Source: Spirochaetia bacterium (GTDB taxonomy: Bacteria; Spirochaetota; Spirochaetia; UBA9216). From it: a DNA stretch of 64,000 bases. The position numbers and the translations under genes were made by a program. Each line of letters opens with the position of its first letter. The stretch's first letter is position 1. Of the stretch, positions 64-63,262 are shown piece after piece. The stretch covers positions 1,792,001 through 1,856,000 of the forward strand of contig CAXXYH010000004.1 of assembly GCA_963677925.2 (NCBI GenBank), in the 5' to 3' direction. The notes under the pieces are model-generated. The model saw only the letters and a program-made list of their open reading frames with translations. It was not told where the DNA came from and searched no databases.

Positions 64-3000
64 ATGAGAGAAATTCAGGATTTTGATCATATACAGATAA
101 TGCTTGCCTCACCCGAGCAGATCAGGGCATGGTCTTACGGTGAAGTAAAAAAGCCGGAAACCATTAACTATAGAACTCTCAGGCCTGAAAAAGACGGTCT
201 GTTCTGTGAAAGAATTTTCGGAACAACCAAGGAATGGGAATGTTACTGCGGAAAGTTTAAGTCTATCCGTTATAAGGGTGTTATATGTGACCGTTGTGGA
301 GTAGAGGTTACTCACTTTAAGGTTCGCCGTGAAAGAATGGGTCATATTGAACTCGCATCACCGGTATCACATATATGGTACTACCGTTCTGTTCCATCAA
401 GAATGGGACTTCTGCTTGATTTAACAGTAGCTGCACTGAGATCTATTCTGTATTACGAAAAATATATAGTTATTGATCCGGGTGATACGGATCTTAAGAA
501 GATGGAACTCCTTACGGAGGAAGAATTTAACAGTGCCAGAGAGCGTTACGGAATGAGTTTTTCCGCCGGTATCGGTGCTGAAGCTATAAGAACGCTTCTT
601 GAGAGAATAGACCTTGACCTGCTCAGCTCGGAACTCAGAGTCAAGATGATCGAGAAGGGTGCAAAGGCTGATAAAAGACTTCTTAAAAGAATTGAGATTG
701 TAGAAAACTTCAGGGATTCAAAGAATAAGCCTGAATGGATGATTCTCGATGTTATTCCTGTTATACCGCCTGAGTTGAGGCCGATGGTTCAGCTTGACGG
801 AGGACGTTTTGCCACATCTGACCTTAATGATCTTTACAGAAGAGTAATTAACCGAAATAACCGTCTAAAGAGACTTATGGCGCTTAATGCTCCTGATATC
901 ATCATCAGGAATGAAAAAAGAATGCTTCAGGAAGCTGTGGATGCCCTTTTTGATAACTCAAAGAAGAAGAGAGTTGTTAAGGGTGCTTCAAACAGGCCTC
1001 TTAAGTCGCTTTCTGACTTCCTTAAGGGTAAGCAGGGTCGTTTCAGGCAGAACCTTCTTGGTAAGCGAGTTGACTATTCAGGCCGTTCGGTTATCGTTGT
1101 TGGTCCGGATCTTAGAATGCATCAGTGCGGTCTCCCTACAAAGATGGCTCTTGAGCTTTATAAGCCGTTTATAATGAAAAAACTCGTCGAAAAAGACGTT
1201 GTTTATAATATTAAGAAAGCAAAAAATCTTGTTGAGCAGGAGACTCCGGAAGTCTGGGCTGTTCTCGATGAGGTTGTAAAAGAGCATCCTGTTTTACTTA
1301 ACCGAGCACCGACTCTTCACAGGCTTGGTATTCAGGCTTTCGAGCCGGTACTGGTTGAAGGTAAGGCAATAAAGCTGCATCCGCTTGTCTGTCATGCATA
1401 TAATGCAGACTTTGACGGTGACCAGATGGCTGTTCACGTGCCTCTTACCCAGGCTGCACAGATAGAGTGCTGGACGCTCATGCTTTCAGTAAATAACCTT
1501 CTTAACCCTGCAAGCGGTACGCCTGTAGTATTTCCTTCACAGGATATGGTTCTTGGAATCAACTATCTTACCAGGGCCAGGGCCGGTGCTCATGGAGAAG
1601 GCAGATGGTACGGTTCGCCTGAGGATATCATACTTGCTCAGGAAGCCGGTGCTGTTGATTTTCAGGCACTTTGTAAAGTTAAAATAGACGGCGAGTATAT
1701 TGAAACAACAGCCGGACGTATAATTTTCAACCAGGCAATGCCTGAAGAGGTTGATTATGTAAACCATTCTCTTGGCGATAAGGAGCTTAAGGTTCTTATT
1801 GCTGAGAGCATAAAGAAAAAGGGTCCTGCAGTTACTGTACGTATGCTTGACGCCATAAAGGATACCGGCTTCAAGTATGCGACTGTTTTCGGGGCAACTA
1901 TCAGTATGGAAGATATTGTTATTCCAACTGAGAAAAAGGATATGATTGAAACTGCAAATAATGAAGTTCTGACTATTCAGGAGCAGTATCTGCAGGGGCA
2001 TATTACCTCAGAAGAGCGTTATAACAGGGTTGTCGAAGTATGGAGTAAGACGAATGAAGAGCTTACGAACGTACTGATGAAGACTCTGAAGGATGATCGG
2101 GCCGGGTTTAACCCTGTGTATATGATGGCTGATTCGGGAGCCCGAGGTAGCCGTACGCAGATTAGACAGTTGGCCGGTATGCGTGGTCTTATGGCTAAGC
2201 CTTCGGGTGATATTATCGAACTTCCTATCCGTTCTAACTTTAAAGAAGGACTTTCGATTATTGAGTTCTTTATTTCAACCAACGGTGCCCGAAAGGGTCT
2301 TGCTGATACGGCTCTTAAAACAGCCGACGCCGGTTATCTGACTCGTCGTCTTGTTGATATTGCTCAGGATGTTGTTGTTAATGAAGATGACTGCGGAACT
2401 ATTAATGGTATTGAAATCAGGGCTATTAAAGAGGGTGAGGAAGTAATCGAATCACTCAGTGACCGAATTGTAGGCCGTTTTACGCTTGAGCGGGTTAAAC
2501 ACCCGATTACCGGCGATATAATGGTCGACGTTAATGAAGAAATTACAGATGAGATTGCAATTGCAATAGAGGAATCCGGAGTTGAGACTGTAAGAATCAG
2601 AACAGTTCTTACCTGTGAAGCTGAGCATGGAGTCTGTCGTAAATGTTACGGTAGAAACCTTGCAAAGAATATGACTGTTGAAATTGGTGAGGCGGTAGGT
2701 ATTATTGCTGCTCAGTCGATTGGTCAGCCCGGAACCCAGCTTACCATGAGAACCTTCCATATCGGTGGTGCTGCTACAAAAGTTTCTGAAGAAAACAGAA
2801 CCTATCTGCACTATCCTGTTGTTATAAAGGAAGTTAACGGAACAACTGTAACTCTTGAAAACGGAGATGTGCTCTATACAAGAAAGGGTAATGTTATTGT
2901 TGCCCGTGTTCTTCAGAGGCTTCCGCTTGGAAAAGACGGGAAAGTTGTGGCTGAAAACGGTACAAAAGTAGTTCCCGGAGATGTTGTAGTTAAAACAAAA

Positions 3001-4392
3001 TCGGGTGAACTGGCTGCTGAGGAGATCGGGTTTGTGCATGTTCTTGAATCCGAGGTTGTTCTTATAGCACAGGATCAGAAAATAGATATCAGGACCGGTG
3101 CAAAGCTGATGATTGGTGTCGGTTCTGTTGTTGCTGCGGAAGATTCAATCGCGATATTCGACCCCTTCTCTGAGCCGATTATAGCTGAGGTAGAAGGTAC
3201 TGTAAAATATCAGGATATTATTCTCGGAACAACACTCAAGGAAGAGGTTAACGAGGATACCGGAAATATTGACAAGAAGATCACTGAGCATATGCTTGAA
3301 ACACTGCAGCCGATGCTGGTTATTGTTGATAGCGAAGGCGAGGAAATTGCAAATTATTACCTGCCGGGTAATGCATATCTTAATATTGAAGACGGTGAAA
3401 AAGTACGTGTAGGTAAAACTCTTGCAAAGCTGCTCAAAGAAAGTGTTAAAACAAGGGATATTACCGGTGGTCTTCCTAGAGTTGGTGAACTTTTTGAAGC
3501 CAGACGTCCTAAGAGTCCGGCAGTTCTTGCAAAGATTAGTGGAATTATCCATCTTAAGGGAATTGTAAAGGGTAAGCGTGTTATTGAGATAGAAGACAGT
3601 TTTGCAAAAGAAGACGGAGCGAACAGTAAGGTCTTCAAGCACCTTGTTCCTATGGGTAAACACCTTCTTGTAAGAGATGGAGACCTTGTTGAAGCTGGCG
3701 AACAGCTTTGTGACGGAAGCATTGATCCGCATGATATTCTTGATATCCTGGGTGAGAATGAACTCCAGTCCTTCCTTGTTAATGAGGTGCAGGAAGTTTA
3801 CCGAATGCAGGGTGTAGTTATTAACGATAAGCATATCGGTGTTATTGTCCGTCAGATGATGCGAAAGGTTGAAATTTGGCAGGTTGGCGATACTAACTTT
3901 ATCTATGGCCAGCAGGTTGACAAATATAAATTTCACGAAGAGAACCGTAAGGTTATGAGAGAGGGCGGGCAGCCTGCAGTGGCCAGGCCGCTTCTTCTTG
4001 GTATAACCAGGGCTTCGCTGAATATTGATTCCTTCCTTTCGGCAGCTTCCTTTCAGGAGACAACAAAGGTTCTTACCAATGCTGCAATTGCCGGAAGCAC
4101 TGATAAGCTCAGAGGTCTTAAGGAGAATGTTGTTATCGGACATCCGATACCTGCAGGAACAGGTATGAGAGCTTACAGGAATGTTCGTCTTTATGATGAG
4201 AACTCTGAAAACCTTGATGCTTCAATCGCTATGATTCTTGAACAGCGTAAGGCTGAAAAAGCGGCTATGGAAGCTATTGATAATGATGATGATGACGGCG
4301 ATGACAGTACACAGCTTAAACCGAAATTCGGTTTTGAGCAGACATTATCTGAAGCAGGGATTATTGATTCCAGAATGGATGATGACGAATAG
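64..4392 (+). CDS. rpoC: DNA-directed RNA polymerase beta' subunit
   Basis: NADFDGD catalytic motif, N-terminal Zn ribbon (CYCGK...CDRC), [25 protein letters not shown], acidic C-tail. Confidence 0.99.
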
Positions 4393-13575: not shown

Positions 13576-13974
13576 ATGGCAGTTTCAGATCCTGTAGCTG
13601 ATATGTTAACTAAAATTCGAAATGCAAACAACGCAAGATTTGACAGAGTTGATATACCTACTTCAAAGTTGAAGCTTGAAATAGTTAAGATACTTAAGAA
13701 TGAAGGCTACGTTAAAAACTTTAAGAAAACGACAATAGATGGAATTAACTTCATCAGAATTTTTCTGAAATATGTAAATGATGATGAACCAATAATTCAT
13801 GGTATTACAAAGATTTCAAAGCCTGGTAGAAGAATCTATACAGGTTACAAAAAAATGCCCAGAGTGTATAACGGATACGGAACTCTGATTGTATCTACTT
13901 CAACCGGTGTAACTACCGGCAGGAAGGCTGCTGAAAAGAAAGTCGGCGGTGAAGTTATTTGCTCAGTTTGGTAG
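13576..13974 (+). CDS. rpsH: 30S ribosomal protein S8
   Basis: [30 protein letters not shown]. Confidence 0.99.
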
Positions 13975-13989
13975 GATAGGGGTAGCGAG

Positions 13990-14526
13990 ATGTCTCGAAT
14001 TGGAAAATTACCGGTAGCAATTCCGCAGGGAGTTAAGGTTTCTGTTTCAGAAGAGCTTATCACTGTAGAAGGACCGAAGGGAAAACTTGAACAGGATTAT
14101 AAACCTGAAGTTGAGATTAAGGTTGAAGATAATTCCGTAGTTGTTACGGCCAAATCCGACACAAAAAGCGCTCATTCTTACCATGGTTTATATCGTTCAC
14201 TTATAAATAATATGGTTACCGGAGTTTCAACCGGTTTTTCTAAAACACTTATTATTAACGGTGTAGGTTACCGTGCTGAAGTTAACAAGGATATCCTTAC
14301 ACTCAGCCTTGGTTACTCACAGCCGATTGATTTCTACATTGAAGAAGGAATCAATATCAGTGTTGAAGGCACAAAGGTAACTGTATCAGGTATCGATAAA
14401 CAGCGCGTTGGTCAGATTAGCTCTGAGATCAGAGGACTTAGACCGCCTGAGCCGTATAAGGGTAAGGGTATAAGATACGATAACGAGAATATCAGAAGAA
14501 AAGTCGGAAAATCTGGTATTAAATAG
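13990..14526 (+). CDS. rplF: 50S ribosomal protein L6
   Basis: [25 protein letters not shown]. Confidence 0.99.
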
Positions 14527-14535
14527 GGTACTTAA

Positions 14536-14895
14536 ATGAAGAAACTAATACAAAAGGCTAACCGAAGAGTTCGGAGAAAGAAACACGTTAGAAAAACTGT
14601 TAGTGGTACTCCTGAAAGACCTCGTTTGAGTGTTTTTAAGAGTAACAGGCACTTATATGCACAGGTAATTGATGATGCCACTGGTGTTACAATTGCTTAC
14701 GCAAATAACATGGAAAAAGATAACAAGGCGATTCCTTCTACGGTAGAAGGCGCAGAGAAGCTCGGTACGCTTCTTGGAGAACGTCTAAAAGAAAAAAATA
14801 TATCTACGGTTGTTTTTGACAGAAATGGATTTTTATATCACGGCAAGGTTAAGGCTATTGCTGAGGGTGTCAGAAAAGCCGGAGTTACTATCTAG
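14536..14895 (+). CDS. rplR: 50S ribosomal protein L18
   Basis: RPRLSVFKSN, VFDRNGFLYHGKV. Confidence 0.98.
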   Translation: MKKLIQKANRRVRRKKHVRKTVSGTPERPRLSVFKSNRHLYAQVIDDATGVTIAYANNMEKDNKAIPSTVEGAEKLGTLLGERLKEKNISTVVFDRNGFLYHGKVKAIAEGVRKAGVTI

Positions 14896-57389: not shown

Positions 57390-57842
57390 ATGATGAGTAA
57401 TTACCTTTCGGAAGAAGGAACATTCATTAATTCCCTGATAGGGGATGGTACCGTGTTTAAGGGAGAGTTATCTCTTAATGGTCTGCTTCGTATCGATGGA
57501 GATTTTTCAGGCACGGTAAAGACTGAAGGAAAAGTACTAATAGGAAAAACCGGCAGGGCGGAAGCTGTCATCGATGCCGGTACTATTGTTATAGGCGGTG
57601 TGCTTAAGGGAAACATAACTGCAACTGAGAAGGTTATTATTCTTTCAACCGGCATGCTTATAGGTAATGTTTCTACACCGCGTTTTATTGTTGAAGACGG
57701 AGTAATTTTTGACGGTAACTGCAAGATACTTCAAAACGACAATTCTGACCGTACTAACAGCAGTTCTGATGAAGGCAAGTTCTTTAAAGGCTATGCTGAG
57801 AAGCTGAAAGGGCTAGAACCAGTTTCTTCATGGAAAAGATAG
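57390..57842 (+). CDS. bactofilin (polymer-forming cytoskeletal protein)
   Basis: SLIGDGTVFKGEL...LRIDGDFSG...VIGGVLKGNITA...GVIFDGNC beta-helix pattern. Confidence 0.93.
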   Translation: MMSNYLSEEGTFINSLIGDGTVFKGELSLNGLLRIDGDFSGTVKTEGKVLIGKTGRAEAVIDAGTIVIGGVLKGNITATEKVIILSTGMLIGNVSTPRFIVEDGVIFDGNCKILQNDNSDRTNSSSDEGKFFKGYAEKLKGLEPVSSWKR

Positions 57843-58340: not shown

Positions 58341-59201
58341 ATGGAAGGTAACAGTTCAACAGCTGTTAAACATATTTATAGATTTAAAATGCTGCATTCA
58401 AGCGAGACCCATCTTTGTGAGGTGGGGCAGGAGCTGGAAAACGGCAGTTTTTCAGTTATAACCAGCCGTTACGGCAAAGATGTTGCCAAAGTGATGGGGC
58501 AGCTGAAATGCAGACCTGAAGAGAAGCATGAGGGTGAATTCCAGAACTTTATCAGGATAGCTACTGAAGATGATATGTCACAGTATGAGGCCAATCTGAT
58601 TAAGGAAAAAGAGGCTGTTAAGATTTGCCGTGAAAAGGTTGCGGCGCATAGTCTTGATATGAAGCTTGTCTCTGCTCATTATCTTCCGGAAGAATCTAAG
58701 ATTCTATTCTTTTTTACAGCCGATGCCCGTGTTGATTTTAGAGAGCTTGTAAAAGATCTTGTTTCGATATTCAAGATGCGGATAGAGCTTCGGCAGATTG
58801 GTGTGAGGGATGAATCCAGGGTTCTGGGTGGAGTTGCTGTCTGCGGAAGGCAGTACTGCTGCCATAACATCACAGACAGGCTTCAGTCTGTCTCGATTAA
58901 AATGGCTAAAGAGCAGAATCTGTCACTGAATTCAATGAAGATTTCCGGCCCTTGTGGAAGACTTTTATGCTGTCTTTCCTATGAATATGATTTTTATAAG
59001 GAAGAAAAAAGAAAGCTTCCATCTGAAGGAAACAAGATTACAATAGGTAAAACAGTCTTTAAGGTAACTGAAGTAAATATTCAGTCCATGAAAATAACGT
59101 TATATGGTGACGACGGCCGTAAGGCGGAAGTTCCGGCAGATAAATTTGCCAGAAAGACGGAAAACGGTCCATGGGAATTTACAGGCAGTCTTGAAGATTG
59201 A
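58341..59201 (+). CDS. ricT: PSP1-domain protein (RicT/YaaT family)
   Basis: RVDFRELVKDL, RIELRQIGVRDE, CGRQYCC, KISGPCGRLLCCL. Confidence 0.9.
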   Translation: MEGNSSTAVKHIYRFKMLHSSETHLCEVGQELENGSFSVITSRYGKDVAKVMGQLKCRPEEKHEGEFQNFIRIATEDDMSQYEANLIKEKEAVKICREKVAAHSLDMKLVSAHYLPEESKILFFFTADARVDFRELVKDLVSIFKMRIELRQIGVRDESRVLGGVAVCGRQYCCHNITDRLQSVSIKMAKEQNLSLNSMKISGPCGRLLCCLSYEYDFYKEEKRKLPSEGNKITIGKTVFKVTEVNIQSMKITLYGDDGRKAEVPADKFARKTENGPWEFTGSLED

Positions 59202-59226
59202 CTTTCATAAAGTTTTTTGTTAGATT
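59198..59226 (+). promoter_or_regulatory. sigma70 promoter for the 56-aa gene
   Basis: TTGACT(59198-203), 17 nt, TAGATT(59221-26) with TGn. Confidence 0.7.
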
Positions 59227-59267
59227 AAAGCGTCGGAACAAGCATAAAATTACATAAGGAGTATCAA

Positions 59268-59438
59268 ATGGCACAGGTCAGTAAGAATGCGCGTGTTGGC
59301 TCTGGTACACATAAACACACATGTCCATGTGGTGGAGATGTTAAGATGAGAGCAGTTTTCCAGAATGGTAAACTCAAAAATGTCGCAGTATGTGAAAAAT
59401 GCAGCAGAAGAGAGAGAAGACCAAGCGACTTCAAATAA
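59268..59438 (+). CDS. 56-aa basic zinc-ribbon protein, candidate lineage-specific ribosomal protein (not in ORF track)
   Basis: MAQVSKNARVGSGTHKHTCPCGGDVKMRAVFQNGKLKNVAVCEKCSRRERRPSDFK*; SD TAAGGAG, own promoter and terminator. Confidence 0.85.
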   Translation: MAQVSKNARVGSGTHKHTCPCGGDVKMRAVFQNGKLKNVAVCEKCSRRERRPSDFK

Positions 59439-59461
59439 TCACTTTTAACTGTATTTAGCCG

Positions 59462-59500
59462 AGGCTGTCTTCATTATACTGAATGACAGCCTTTTTGTTT
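59462..59500 (+). terminator. intrinsic terminator after the 56-aa gene
   Basis: AGGCTGTC-TTCA-ttatac-TGAA-t-GACAGCCT then TTTTGTTT. Confidence 0.85.
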
Positions 59501-59551
59501 TATTACCGTAATTTAAGCAGATATCCACCTGGTATAATCAGAGATATATAC

Positions 59552-59580
59552 TTGACTATAAAGGATTTATCTGCTAATTT
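59552..59580 (+). promoter_or_regulatory. sigma70 promoter for rpsT-HU-lnt
   Basis: TTGACT(59552-57), 17 nt, TAATTT(59575-80) with TGn. Confidence 0.65.
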
Positions 59581-59618
59581 ATCACACCGTTAGATATAGA
59601 AATTATCGGAGGATTAAA

Positions 59619-59888
59619 TTGCCAGGAAAAGGTTCAGCGGCAAAACGCCATAGACAGAGTGAAAAAAGAAGAATGAAAAACAGGGTTGCCAAAAGCACAG
59701 TAAGAACTGTTACAAAAAACTTCATTCTTGCAGTAAAATCAGGTGATAAACCTGCTGCAGAAGCAAAATACCTTGAGATGACAAAGCTCATGGATACTGC
59801 TGCAGGAAAGGGTATCTACCATAAGAATATGGTTGCAAGAAAGAAATCCAGAATGCATAAGCTTCTGAATTCAATCGCTGCGGAATAA
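59619..59888 (+). CDS. rpsT: 30S ribosomal protein S20
   Basis: SAAKRHRQSEKRRMKN, KGIYHKNMVARKKSRM; TTG start after GGAGG. Confidence 0.96.
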   Translation: MPGKGSAAKRHRQSEKRRMKNRVAKSTVRTVTKNFILAVKSGDKPAAEAKYLEMTKLMDTAAGKGIYHKNMVARKKSRMHKLLNSIAAE

Positions 59889-59925
59889 TCTGCAGAACGA
59901 AGATTTTAATAACAGGGGATTGCTT

Positions 59926-60231
59926 GTGAGCCAGACCAAACTCACAAAAGCTGAAATAATCGAAAATATTCATGAAAGGGTTGAGTTGAACCGTAAGGAT
60001 GTTCATGCGGTAATCGATGCCATGTTTGATGAACTGAAAAATGCTCTTGAAGAGGATAAAATAGTCGAACTTCGTGGTTTCGGTACTTTTGAAATCCGTA
60101 CTAGAAAGGGCCGTGAGAAGGCCAGGAACCCTAAAACCGGAGAAATAGTTCCGGTAAAAGCTCATGGTGTAGCTGTTTTCAGGCCTGGTAAAGAACTGAA
60201 AACACTGGCCTGGCCTCTTAGGAATGAATGA
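59926..60231 (+). CDS. HU/IHF-family DNA-binding protein (Hbb-like)
   Basis: LTKAEI, VELRGFGTF, ARNPKTGE, FRPGKELK; probable GTG start. Confidence 0.93.
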   Translation: MSQTKLTKAEIIENIHERVELNRKDVHAVIDAMFDELKNALEEDKIVELRGFGTFEIRTRKGREKARNPKTGEIVPVKAHGVAVFRPGKELKTLAWPLRNE

Positions 60232-61855
60232 TTTGACAGTAACGGCAGAAAAAAAGTTCTCTTTACCGACCCTTCTGAAGGAGATCGGACTTTTAGTACT
60301 TTCTGCGGTTCTTTTTGCTTTATCGTTTCCCAACCTTCTAAATGAATGGGGGTTCTTCCCTGTTGCTTTTATTTGTTTAACCCCCATATTTATAGTTATT
60401 CATAATGCAGGGTGGCTGCGGACCGTTTTTTACGGGATGTTTTATGGGTACATCTGCTATGTCCTGTTCAATTACTGGCTGTCCACCTTTCATCCGCTGG
60501 CAATAGTTATTGTGCCGGTTATATATGCCGTGTACTTTCTTGTTCTGTTTCCATTTCTTAAACTTGCAGGTACGTTATTTCCAAAATGGGGCTTTATTGT
60601 TCAGGCTGGAGTCTGGCTTGCATATGAATATTTCAGAACACTAGGGTTTCTCGGGTATCCCTATGGCAATCTCGGCTATTCACAGTATCTTTTCAGACCA
60701 TTTATTCAGATTTCATCAGTAACCGGTTTCTGGTTTGTTTCCCTTTTAGTTGTTCTGCCTTCAGTATTTCTTGGAAATGCTTTGAGAGACGGTCTCAGAG
60801 AATTTGTAAATAATATTAAAAAACAGCGGATTTTTATCTATGTATATGCTGCACTTTTTGTTGCAGTCCTGATTTTCGGACTTTTTTCTCCGAAAGATTT
60901 TTCAGATGCCCGTCAGATTAAACTTGGATTTGTACAGCATAATGCAGATACCTGGAAAGGCGGTGTTAAAACCTACGAAAGCAATATGAACAAGATGATC
61001 GAACTCAGTAAGAAGGCTCTTGAGGAAGATCCTTCAATTGAGATGATGATCTGGTCTGAGACAGCCTTTGTTCCCGGGATTGATTATCACAGCAGATATA
61101 GAACAGAACCTGAAAAGTACAGACTTGTAAAAGAGCTCAAGGAATTTTTTGCCACCCAGGATATACCCTACGTCATAGGCAACGATGACGGGCAGTTGGA
61201 ACCTGATGAAAATGGTGATTTGAAGAGGGTTGATTATAATGCAGTACTTCTTTATGACGGAGATCTTCAGGCTACATACAGAAAAACTCATTTAGTGCCC
61301 TTTACTGAGAACTTTCCCTATCAGAAACAGATGCCCAGGTTTTATCAGGCTTTAAGGGATCATGATTTTCATTTCTGGAAGAAGGGGACTGAGTATACTG
61401 TTTTCGATGCTGCCGGAGTTAAATTCAGTACGCCTATCTGTTTTGAGGATGTATTCGGATACCTTTCAAGAGAGTTTGTTAATAACGGTGCTCAGATGAT
61501 AGTCAATCTGACCAACGATTCATGGTCAGGCTCTATTCCTGCAGAGATGCAGCATATGGCTATGGCGGTTTTCAGGGCAGTTGAGACCCGCAGAACCGTT
61601 GTTCGAGGAACTAATGCAGGAATTACCTGTACAATTGAACCGGACGGGGAGATAACGAATATCATCAGACCCTTTGAAGAGAATTATATGATAGCTTCAG
61701 TGCCTGTTTATGATAAGATTTACACCCTCTATCTGGCCTGGGGCGACTGGTTTGCCGTTCTGACTGTAATTCTGACTATAGCTGCGCTTATTGCAGGGGT
61801 GGTATTACGAATTAGGCGGTATGCTCTGCAAAATAGATTTGACAATCATCAATAA
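60224..61855 (+). CDS. lnt: apolipoprotein N-acyltransferase
   Basis: Multi-TM N-terminus, GYPYGNLGYSQ, nitrilase triad WSETA / KTHLVPFTE / ICFED, LTNDSW. Confidence 0.95.
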   Translation: MNDLTVTAEKKFSLPTLLKEIGLLVLSAVLFALSFPNLLNEWGFFPVAFICLTPIFIVIHNAGWLRTVFYGMFYGYICYVLFNYWLSTFHPLAIVIVPVIYAVYFLVLFPFLKLAGTLFPKWGFIVQAGVWLAYEYFRTLGFLGYPYGNLGYSQYLFRPFIQISSVTGFWFVSLLVVLPSVFLGNALRDGLREFVNNIKKQRIFIYVYAALFVAVLIFGLFSPKDFSDARQIKLGFVQHNADTWKGGVKTYESNMNKMIELSKKALEEDPSIEMMIWSETAFVPGIDYHSRYRTEPEKYRLVKELKEFFATQDIPYVIGNDDGQLEPDENGDLKRVDYNAVLLYDGDLQATYRKTHLVPFTENFPYQKQMPRFYQALRDHDFHFWKKGTEYTVFDAAGVKFSTPICFEDVFGYLSREFVNNGAQMIVNLTNDSWSGSIPAEMQHMAMAVFRAVETRRTVVRGTNAGITCTIEPDGEITNIIRPFEENYMIASVPVYDKIYTLYLAWGDWFAVLTVILTIAALIAGVVLRIRRYALQNRFDNHQ

Positions 61856-62613: not shown

Positions 62614-62831
62614 TTACAGAAGAAAAAAAACAGGTATTATCACTTTTTTCTGAAGGAAGAAAATGTTATAAACTTATGGACTTTGAGAAAGCGAAAGACT
62701 ATTTTTTAAAAGCATTACAGATTGATAAAGAGGATGGTCCCTCAAAAGTTTATCTTGCCAGATGCAAGCATTATATCACATCTCCTCCCCCCGAGGATTG
62801 GGATGGGGTATTTGTGATGACTACAAAATAA
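62610..62831 (+). CDS. small single-TPR protein resembling the C-terminal tail of class III adenylate/guanylate cyclases
   Basis: FSEGRKCY...AKDYF...DGPSKVYLARC...PPPEDWDGVF; TTGA overlap with upstream stop, SD GAGG. Confidence 0.75.
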   Translation: MITEEKKQVLSLFSEGRKCYKLMDFEKAKDYFLKALQIDKEDGPSKVYLARCKHYITSPPPEDWDGVFVMTTK

Positions 62832-62848
62832 TAATACAGCCGGAAGAT

Positions 62849-63262
62849 ATGAACAGAAAAGCAGAATTTTACAGATTTGATAAAGTAAATACAGTATTAA
62901 AAAATGGAACTGATTTTAATGGAATACTTAGATTCAGCAAACCTTTAAAGATAAATGGAAAATTTAATGGTGAGATTGAATCCGAAAGCATCCTGTATAT
63001 AGACACTGATGCAACTGTTACCGCTGACATCAAGGCAAAAACGGTAATTATCAGCGGGACTGTCAATGGCGATATTACTGCTGAGGAAAGAATTGAAATA
63101 CTAGCTGAAGGCAAGGTTAAAGGCAATCTTAAAACTTCACGGCTGAAAATATCCGATGGAGTTAAATTTGAAGGCAAATGCAGCATGATCAGGAACCCTG
63201 AATCTGTTGATGTCTTCTCAGCCAGGGTTGAGAAACTTAAAGAAATCGTAAAGAACGTCTGA
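62849..63262 (+). CDS. second bactofilin
   Basis: TVLKNGTDFNGIL...LKINGKFNGEI...IISGTVNGDITA...GVKFEGKC; ATG 62849. Confidence 0.9.
   Translation: MNRKAEFYRFDKVNTVLKNGTDFNGILRFSKPLKINGKFNGEIESESILYIDTDATVTADIKAKTVIISGTVNGDITAEERIEILAEGKVKGNLKTSRLKISDGVKFEGKCSMIRNPESVDVFSARVEKLKEIVKNV

Follow-up and report, generated by a model that had tools for sequence, protein, structure and literature searches.

The window, as the whole stretch of DNA analysed here is called, comprises 64,000 nucleotides (nt) from a Spirochaetia bacterium (GenBank assembly GCA_963677925.2, contig CAXXYH010000004.1, positions 1,792,001 to 1,856,000 of the forward strand), and positions are counted from its first letter. 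Towards its end, between a PSP1-family gene and the ribosomal protein gene rpsT, lies an open reading frame (ORF) of 56 codons. Judging from its sequence, this ORF very probably encodes the four-cysteine orthologue of ribosomal protein bL38, a protein that would bind zinc and associate with the ribosome and whose gene would be transcribed independently of its neighbours. The gene and its expression signals are as follows.

59198..59226, plus strand: sigma-70-type promoter, with the –35 element TTGACT at 59198-59203, a 17-nt spacer and the –10 element TAGATT at 59221-59226
59255-59261, plus strand: Shine-Dalgarno sequence TAAGGAG, 6 nt 5' of the ATG
59268..59438, plus strand: bL38-type coding sequence, ATG start, 56 codons, product MAQVSKNARVGSGTHKHTCPCGGDVKMRAVFQNGKLKNVAVCEKCSRRERRPSDFK
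59322-59324, 59328-59330, 59391-59393 and 59400-59402, plus strand: codons of the cysteines C19, C21, C42 and C45, respectively
59461..59503, plus strand: intrinsic terminator, a bulged G+C-rich hairpin (59461-59493) followed by a T-run, TTTTTGTTTT

The 56-residue product is strongly basic, with 13 Lys and Arg versus 4 Asp and Glu, a calculated isoelectric point of 10.2 and a mass of 6.2 kDa. Its two cysteine knuckles, CPC (C19 and C21) and CEKC (C42 and C45), are read directly from the translation. The promoter carries an extended –10 element (TGtTAGATT, 59218-59226, with the TG at 59218-59219), and its –35 element overlaps the TGA stop codon of the upstream PSP1-family gene. A scan for the promoter consensus, taken alone, stays at the level of chance in DNA so rich in A+T (3 sites in 1.5 kb versus 3.1 expected). 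The call is rescued by comparative data: the pattern TTGAC-N16-18-TAnnnT precedes the gene by at most 110 nt in 78 of 126 homologous loci, counting that of the window, versus 0.6% of mononucleotide shuffles. In the close relatives L032-L036 and L038 the promoter hexamers are visibly in register, with differing spacers, and a Shine-Dalgarno-like word precedes 117 of the 126 homologous loci. The terminator hairpin, followed directly on its 3' side by the tail UUUUUGUUUU, has a folding energy of –17.6 kcal/mol (z = –4.1), and none of 200 shuffles was equally stable; a simple scan overlooked it because its stem carries a bulge. Judged from these signals, the bL38-type gene would form its own, monocistronic transcription unit. 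A scan of 58800-60400 against Rfam gave three matches, all far below gathering scores.

The sequence-only reading that preceded our analysis had described this expression unit (TTGACT-17-TAGATT with an extended –10 element, TAAGGAG and a strong terminator), a 56-residue product rich in Lys and Arg with CPC…CEKC, and a position directly upstream of rpsT, all of which are borne out. Its further argument, that the use of AGA and CGT arginine codons is telling of a ribosomal protein gene, is weak. The ORF does contain five AGA codons and one CGT codon, but these are already the first and third commonest arginine codons (0.40 and 0.147) in 38 long ORFs of the window, and codon usage was dropped as evidence.

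With only 56 codons, a mirror ORF of equal length on the opposite strand (59264..59434) and a promoter scan that alone stays at chance level, the frame might be taken for a chance ORF or for non-coding DNA that separates the PSP1-family gene from rpsT. The conservation data refute this account, whose probability is practically nil. A HMMER search with the single sequence retrieved 17 close homologues, and the profile built from them (A1; four-cysteine proteins only, without Borrelia-type rows) recovered 711 clusters at 90% identity and, from a library of 1.84 billion proteins, 141 representatives at 50% identity. The reading frame is intact, without an internal stop, in all 82 matches from the sampled genomes and at the 126 loci. 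The ratio of nonsynonymous to synonymous substitution rates (dN/dS) relative to the window gene lies between 0.05 and 0.14 for pairs without saturated dS. The product, furthermore, is significantly similar to a chain that has been resolved within a ribosome. We conclude that the ORF is a real gene and that it is under purifying selection.

The gene is present as a single copy in the window's own genome. A second profile, A2, whose 95 diverse rows span the family and include its zinc-less forms, places the most conserved part of the protein at the N-terminus, where the motif is M-A-x-x-S-K-N-A-[RQ] and where M1, S5, K6 and N7 each reach at least 90% conservation. A Treponema-like genome, G341, carries two four-cysteine copies, L014 (C4:29925-30092) and L126 (C12:58595-58762). 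The former adjoins rpsT-HU, and the latter stands alone on a long branch (0.32) and may represent a paralogue or an assembly mixture.

bL38 is among the newest bacterial ribosomal proteins. The spirochaete type has so far been observed only in the agent of Lyme disease, Borrelia (Borreliella) burgdorferi, where it is the product of bb0162 (UniProt O51184), a protein of 55 residues that was uncharacterised before it was identified in the ribosome by density and by liquid chromatography–tandem mass spectrometry (PMC10618245). It contacts the 23S helices H95 (the sarcin-ricin helix) and H97 together with uL6 and uL14, and the residues K34, K36, R49, K50 and R52 form its RNA-facing spine (PMC10618245). 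Its fold consists of a beta-hairpin, a small third strand and a short C-terminal helix, and residues 1-9 could not be resolved in the hibernating ribosome (PMC10618245).

Searched with phmmer against all PDB chains, the window protein finds this Borrelia protein first (8fmw_Ai, '50S ribosomal protein bL38', E = 3.4e-4), the next chain standing at E = 0.72. The E-value of the same chain falls to 3.6e-8 with the 17-row profile A1 and to 1.2e-14 with the 95-row profile A2. A Borrelia-like orthologue of 55 residues, P0276, encoded at about 161 kb of the main contig of a sampled Borrelia-like genome, aligns with the window protein end to end in BLASTP, with 22 of 55 residues identical (40%; E = 1e-13). 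Four of the five positions of the Borrelia RNA spine are basic in the window protein (K35, K37, R50 and R51), and the fifth is S53 in the phmmer alignment.

The predicted structure leads to the same chain. The AlphaFold2 model, computed on A2 without templates, has a mean predicted local distance difference test (pLDDT) score of 74.4 and contains two strands (residues 24-32 and 35-42) and a C-terminal helix (residues 52-55), with the hairpin seated between the knuckles C19-x-C21 and C42-x-x-C45. Foldseek against 350,542 PDB chains ranks 8fmw_Ai first (E = 1.1e-2, probability 1.00, template modelling scores 0.62/0.74), with the next hit at E = 0.93, and superposes the two with a root-mean-square deviation of 2.8 over 43 columns. 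When VIA-align was applied to Foldseek's list, the bL38 chain scored Z = 5.6 with all 46 of 46 residues aligned, the next chain reaching 3.5. Run independently of Foldseek over 48,161 representative chains, VIA-align returned a single chain with Z of at least 5, namely 8fn2_i from a 50S entry (Z = 5.5, 46/46 residues; next 3.3). Chain Ai of 8fmw and chain i of 8fn2 are the same Borrelia bL38 in two PDB entries. Behind bL38 in the structural ranking come C4 zinc ribbons, for example Rpb9 and GRF fingers. Modest structural scores are to be expected for only 46 residues, and the bL38 match is still clear of the rest. By sequence and by predicted fold, the window protein is a member of the bb0162-type bL38 family.

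The sequence-only reading had proposed a zinc-binding version of a lineage-specific, bL38-like ribosomal protein, or else another small RNA-binding protein, and had given the frame SKNA...GGxIxM...GK...AxC...RxPxD for a Borrelia protein without the full cysteine set. Its description of bL38 proves accurate. The Borrelia bL38 chain is the best PDB match of the ORF and is ranked first by both sequence and predicted fold; the frame is present in bb0162 as given in Supplementary Note 4 of the Borrelia paper (PMC10618245) and in Borrelia-like genomes; and three of the four cysteines are missing from the Borrelia protein.

A different ribosomal origin is suggested by bL31, whose N-terminal domain has CxC...CxxC knuckles of equal spacing, and the window protein might accordingly be a truncated bL31 paralogue. 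Residues 18-46 give weak matches to bL31 chains (E = 0.14-2), and the NCBIfam model PRK00019 is matched at E = 0.009. The latter match amounts to 15.6 bits against a curated cut-off of 70, however, and the Pfam model Ribosomal_L31 matches only 2 of 95 family members, with a best E-value of 0.053. When A2 is searched against the PDB, no bL31 chain is listed at E ≤ 10 while bL38 rises to the value given above, and bL31 is likewise not among the structural matches with Z of at least 2. In addition, the genome has its own complete four-cysteine bL31, of 69 residues, just beyond the window. A bL31 derivation is thus very unlikely, and membership of the bL38 family remains the reading pursued below.

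The distribution of the family was surveyed in 400 other genomes spread evenly over the phylum, 78 of them in the window's class and 322 in other classes; the sampled genomes are related to one another, and the following statements hold for those searched. The family is present in 77 of the 78 other genomes of the class, among them a Treponema-like genome of 1.14 Mb, and the sole miss is an assembly in 220 contigs. Neither A1 nor A2 located the family in the 322 genomes from other spirochaete classes, A2 giving one weak match; a bL38-type protein is thus not a universal requirement. The weak match, in G376 (E = 1.4e-4), is an 82-residue zinc-ribbon ORF without the SKNA N-terminus and without the R-R-P-x-D-F tail, and was rejected as a non-homologue. 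For the most divergent metagenomic representatives, a cluster look-up yielded no names in 8 of 10 cases; of the two other clusters, one contained named members, with 'Spirochaetales bacterium' as the sole taxon.

Within the family the cysteine positions vary. CxC...CxxC is retained at 115 of the 126 loci, and at the remaining 11 the four positions are occupied by Ser, Trp, Cys and Ser/Thr. Of 114 full-length metagenomic representatives, 85 read CCCC and 11 read HCCC, with His at the first position. The zinc-less loci span five families, comprising the Borrelia-like genomes (1.0-1.8 Mb) and four others (1.5-3.9 Mb), and the one cysteine kept by the Borrelia protein is the first of the second knuckle. 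Since its cysteine set is complete, the window protein is expected to hold zinc, which the S-x-W...C-x-x-S arrangement of Borrelia cannot do in the same manner. The Trp in place of the second cysteine presumably fills the core of the zinc-less proteins instead of the metal.

In a quick maximum-likelihood search with IQ-TREE (56 columns, root not established, support by the Shimodaira–Hasegawa-like approximate likelihood-ratio test (SH-aLRT) only), the 11 zinc-less loci form one side of a single branch with a support of 99. One change of cysteine state is needed on this tree, versus a mean of 10.7 in shuffles, and the branch between the four-cysteine and zinc-less forms is the longest internal one (1.52 changes per column). 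The simplest reading of these sequences would make the zinc ribbon the older state, with zinc lost once; on this reading, the S-W-C-S/T form would be derived and have arisen once.

Cysteine losses in other ribosomal proteins were tabulated from the loci L153-L172 for five genomes. In the order G000 (the window's genome), G124, G210, G332 and G371, the cysteine counts are 4, 0, 0, 0 and 4 for bL31; 4, 4, 0, 4 and 4 for bL32; 3, 2, 1, 1 and 3 for bL33; and 3, 3, 2, 3 and 3 for bL36. G210 is zinc-less in bL31, bL32, bL33 and bL36 as well as in bL38, and G371 is zinc-less only in bL38. The pattern is mixed and covers only five related genomes, so that we draw no conclusion on zinc economy as a cause of cysteine loss.

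The genes surrounding the bL38-type gene, assigned by Pfam, are the following.

58341..59201, directly upstream of the bL38-type gene: PSP1-family gene
59619..59888, plus strand: rpsT, encoding bS20 (Ribosomal_S20p, E = 1.3e-25), starting 180 nt downstream of the bL38-type ORF
59920..60231, after rpsT: HU-family gene
60224..61855, after the HU-family gene: lnt

Further upstream, Pfam identifies genes for an M23 peptidase, a bactofilin and a DUF327 protein, and two bactofilin genes (57390..57842 and 62762..63262) flank the region. Read directly, rpsT seems to have a promoter-like site of its own past the terminator (59553..59581, TTGACT-17-TAATTT), which the scan did not call. The window also contains part of the large ribosomal protein operon, with uS8 at 13576..13974, uL6 at 13990..14526 and uL18 at 14536..14895; uL6 was confirmed with PF00347, and the names uS8 and uL18 come from reading the translations. 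The predicted ribosomal neighbour uL6 is thus encoded 45 kb upstream of the bL38-type gene. The bL33 gene of the same genome lies outside the window, at G000:C4:1785049.

The linkage to rpsT extends to most relatives. At 81 of the 114 other four-cysteine loci the gene is followed by rpsT on the same strand (median gap, 177 nt), and at 6 rpsT is adjacent but divergent; it was not seen at the remaining 27, some of which are short stretches. A gap of at most 100 nt, found at 21 of the 81 loci, suggests co-transcription with the ribosomal protein gene. The bactofilin/DUF327/PSP1 block stands upstream at 61 of the 114 loci, counted by PSP1. At about 20 loci, for example L032, L035, L038, L042 and L043, rpsT begins more than 400 nt past the stop codon (offsets of 1.1-1.5 kb), apparently because of an additional gene in between. 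The zinc-less gene of G210 (G210:C1:3188977-3189344; locus L120, about 2800-3170, minus strand) is followed on the same strand, after about 70 nt, by rpmG, which encodes bL33, an arrangement that recalls the bL28-bL33-bL38 operon reported for Bacteroidia.

How the four-cysteine protein may work can be sketched from the Borrelia site. C19-x-C21 and C42-x-x-C45, which flank the beta-hairpin, would hold one Zn2+ and rigidify the 6-kDa module. The module would dock on the 50S subunit where Borrelia bL38 does, against uL6 and uL14 and on H95, with its sarcin-ricin loop, and H97, and K35, K37, R50 and R51 would take the roles of Borrelia K34, K36, R49 and K50. If Flavobacterium bL38 is a guide, the protein probably helps to keep uL6 and the stalk base stable while the 50S subunit is assembled. 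When a complex between the protein (A2) and uL6 from the window (alignment A3) was predicted, it scored 0.35, versus 0.41 for a control in which uL6 was replaced, and the prediction counts neither for nor against the docking.

A deeper origin may also be considered, although we regard it as unlikely. The four-cysteine form might be ancestral to all bL38: a zinc ribbon, possibly of common origin with the CxC...CxxC knuckles of bL31, would have joined the 50S subunit beside uL6, and the zinc-less proteins of Borrelia, perhaps also those of Rhodothermus and Bacteroidia, would be its degenerate descendants. If so, most of the class would need zinc to assemble the 50S subunit around uL6 and the sarcin-ricin helix, and the almost invariant SKNA[RQ] would mark a contact limited to assembly or to active translation. 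The contact made by the SKNA motif is puzzling in any case, since this most conserved segment is the part left unresolved in the hibernating Borrelia ribosome.

Several observations weigh against the assignment of the window protein as a zinc-binding, ribosome-associated bL38. The zinc-less Borrelia form is the only one with proven ribosome binding, and zinc binding is read from the motif only. rpsT is near none of the 11 zinc-less loci; as these include the lineage in which the protein was found on the ribosome, the linkage and the functional proof come from different branches. Among the PDB chains, none beyond the two Borrelia entries matches the window protein in sequence and profile searches, and short cysteine-rich proteins of this kind match many zinc-ribbon families weakly (CSL, DUF7129 and bL31). 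The Foldseek E-value and the Z-scores of 5.5-5.6, which the tool itself grades 'middling', are modest; the model reaches a pLDDT of only 74, with residues 1-16 poorly defined; and one of the five Borrelia spine residues is non-basic here (S53). The absence of family matches from the 322 genomes of other spirochaete classes points in the same direction.

Some of these points would equally suit a bL38 homologue that acts off the ribosome in the four-cysteine species, as a free zinc-ribbon nucleic-acid binder, for example a regulator of rpsT-HU or a transient assembly or hibernation factor. The proof of binding for the zinc-less form only, the long branch that parts the four-cysteine proteins from that form, and the generic zinc ribbons Rpb9, GRF and MqsA as the next structural neighbours speak for this alternative, as does the window gene's position outside a ribosomal protein operon with its own promoter and terminator. 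By comparison, the protein aligns end to end with the orthologue of the ribosomal chain at 40% identity and is basic at four of the five RNA-contact positions. Its gene, present in one copy, occurs in almost every sampled genome of the class, is strongly constrained by purifying selection, and has a gap to rpsT that is short enough at 21 of 81 loci to suggest co-transcription. Taken together, an off-ribosome role is clearly unlikely, and a four-cysteine bL38 that sits on the 50S subunit is the reading we favour.

In the 2025 Flavobacterium study, the range of clades that depend on bL38 is described as unclear (PMC11851116). Our survey answers for one class, in which the bL38 family is present in nearly every sampled genome, mostly as zinc ribbons. 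The Borrelia protein is therefore no oddity of Borrelia, being a zinc-less offshoot of a nearly class-wide family. With the four-cysteine form, the few zinc-dependent ribosomal proteins are joined by one further candidate, and cultivable non-pathogenic spirochaetes become options for studying bL38 function. Annotators gain a profile for a gene that is labelled 'hypothetical protein' and that neither Pfam (local copy) nor NCBIfam names. The uses of the finding thus lie in annotation, in ribosome evolution and in the list of zinc-dependent ribosomal proteins.

Compared with Borrelia bL38, the window protein is of nearly equal length (56 versus 55 residues), and the two share the N-terminal SKNA, GG-x-[IV]-x-M, NGK, A-x-C and R-[RK]-P-x-D, as well as the predicted fold. 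The differences concern the metal site, CxC...CxxC in the window protein and S-x-W...C-x-x-S in Borrelia, and the gene's position, which adjoins rpsT in the window, whereas the Borrelia-like gene lies between the genes for alanine racemase and a Na/Ca exchanger. The main text and three supplements of the Borrelia ribosome paper do not mention zinc, cysteine or Treponema homologues in connection with bL38 (PMC10618245). Full-text literature, mostly outside subscription journals, gave nothing on a zinc form of bL38 or on bL38 in other spirochaetes. Where sources give the homologues a name, it is 'hypothetical protein'; in NCBIfam (June 2026) neither the window protein nor its Borrelia-like and Treponema-like counterparts match any model, and no model in our local Pfam copy exceeds its threshold for proteins of the family. 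PF27425 (Atlas name AF0631_N, Pfam 38.1), which is precomputed on some homologues and missing from that Pfam copy, is carried by 12% of one cluster and was taken as a generic zinc-ribbon match.

Zinc-ribbon ribosomal proteins that occur in cysteine-containing (C+) and cysteine-less (C–) forms include bL31, bL32, bL33, bL36, uS14 and bS18. The bL38 family resembles them as a short basic protein with four cysteines in some lineages and other residues elsewhere. C+ and C– copies never occur side by side in the genomes searched, however, and the sole genome with two copies has two four-cysteine ones. The change of cysteines looks like an in-place substitution in one branch and not like a Zur-type paralogue switch.

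The bL38 of Bacteroidia, as described for Flavobacterium johnsoniae (PMC7797042, PMC11851116), is also a small basic protein of the 50S subunit at a similar site beside uL6. There it promotes the incorporation of uL6 during assembly, and its depletion leads to 50S precursors without uL6 (PMC11851116). Its gene is located downstream of those for bL28 and bL33 in one operon, whereas the window gene stands between the PSP1-family gene and rpsT, and its sequence as printed in the supplement is without the cysteine set that is complete in the window protein. Bacteroidia bL38 gave no match at E ≤ 10 when A1 and A2 were searched against the PDB and was not listed by three structure searches, in which VIA-align showed no second bL38 chain with Z of at least 2, no direct comparison having been made. 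In a published comparison, Flavobacterium and Borrelia bL38 are 16-18% identical, with their homology questioned and Rhodothermus considered as a possible bridge. Set beside these systems, the four-cysteine bL38 is no new kind of system; it extends known biology.

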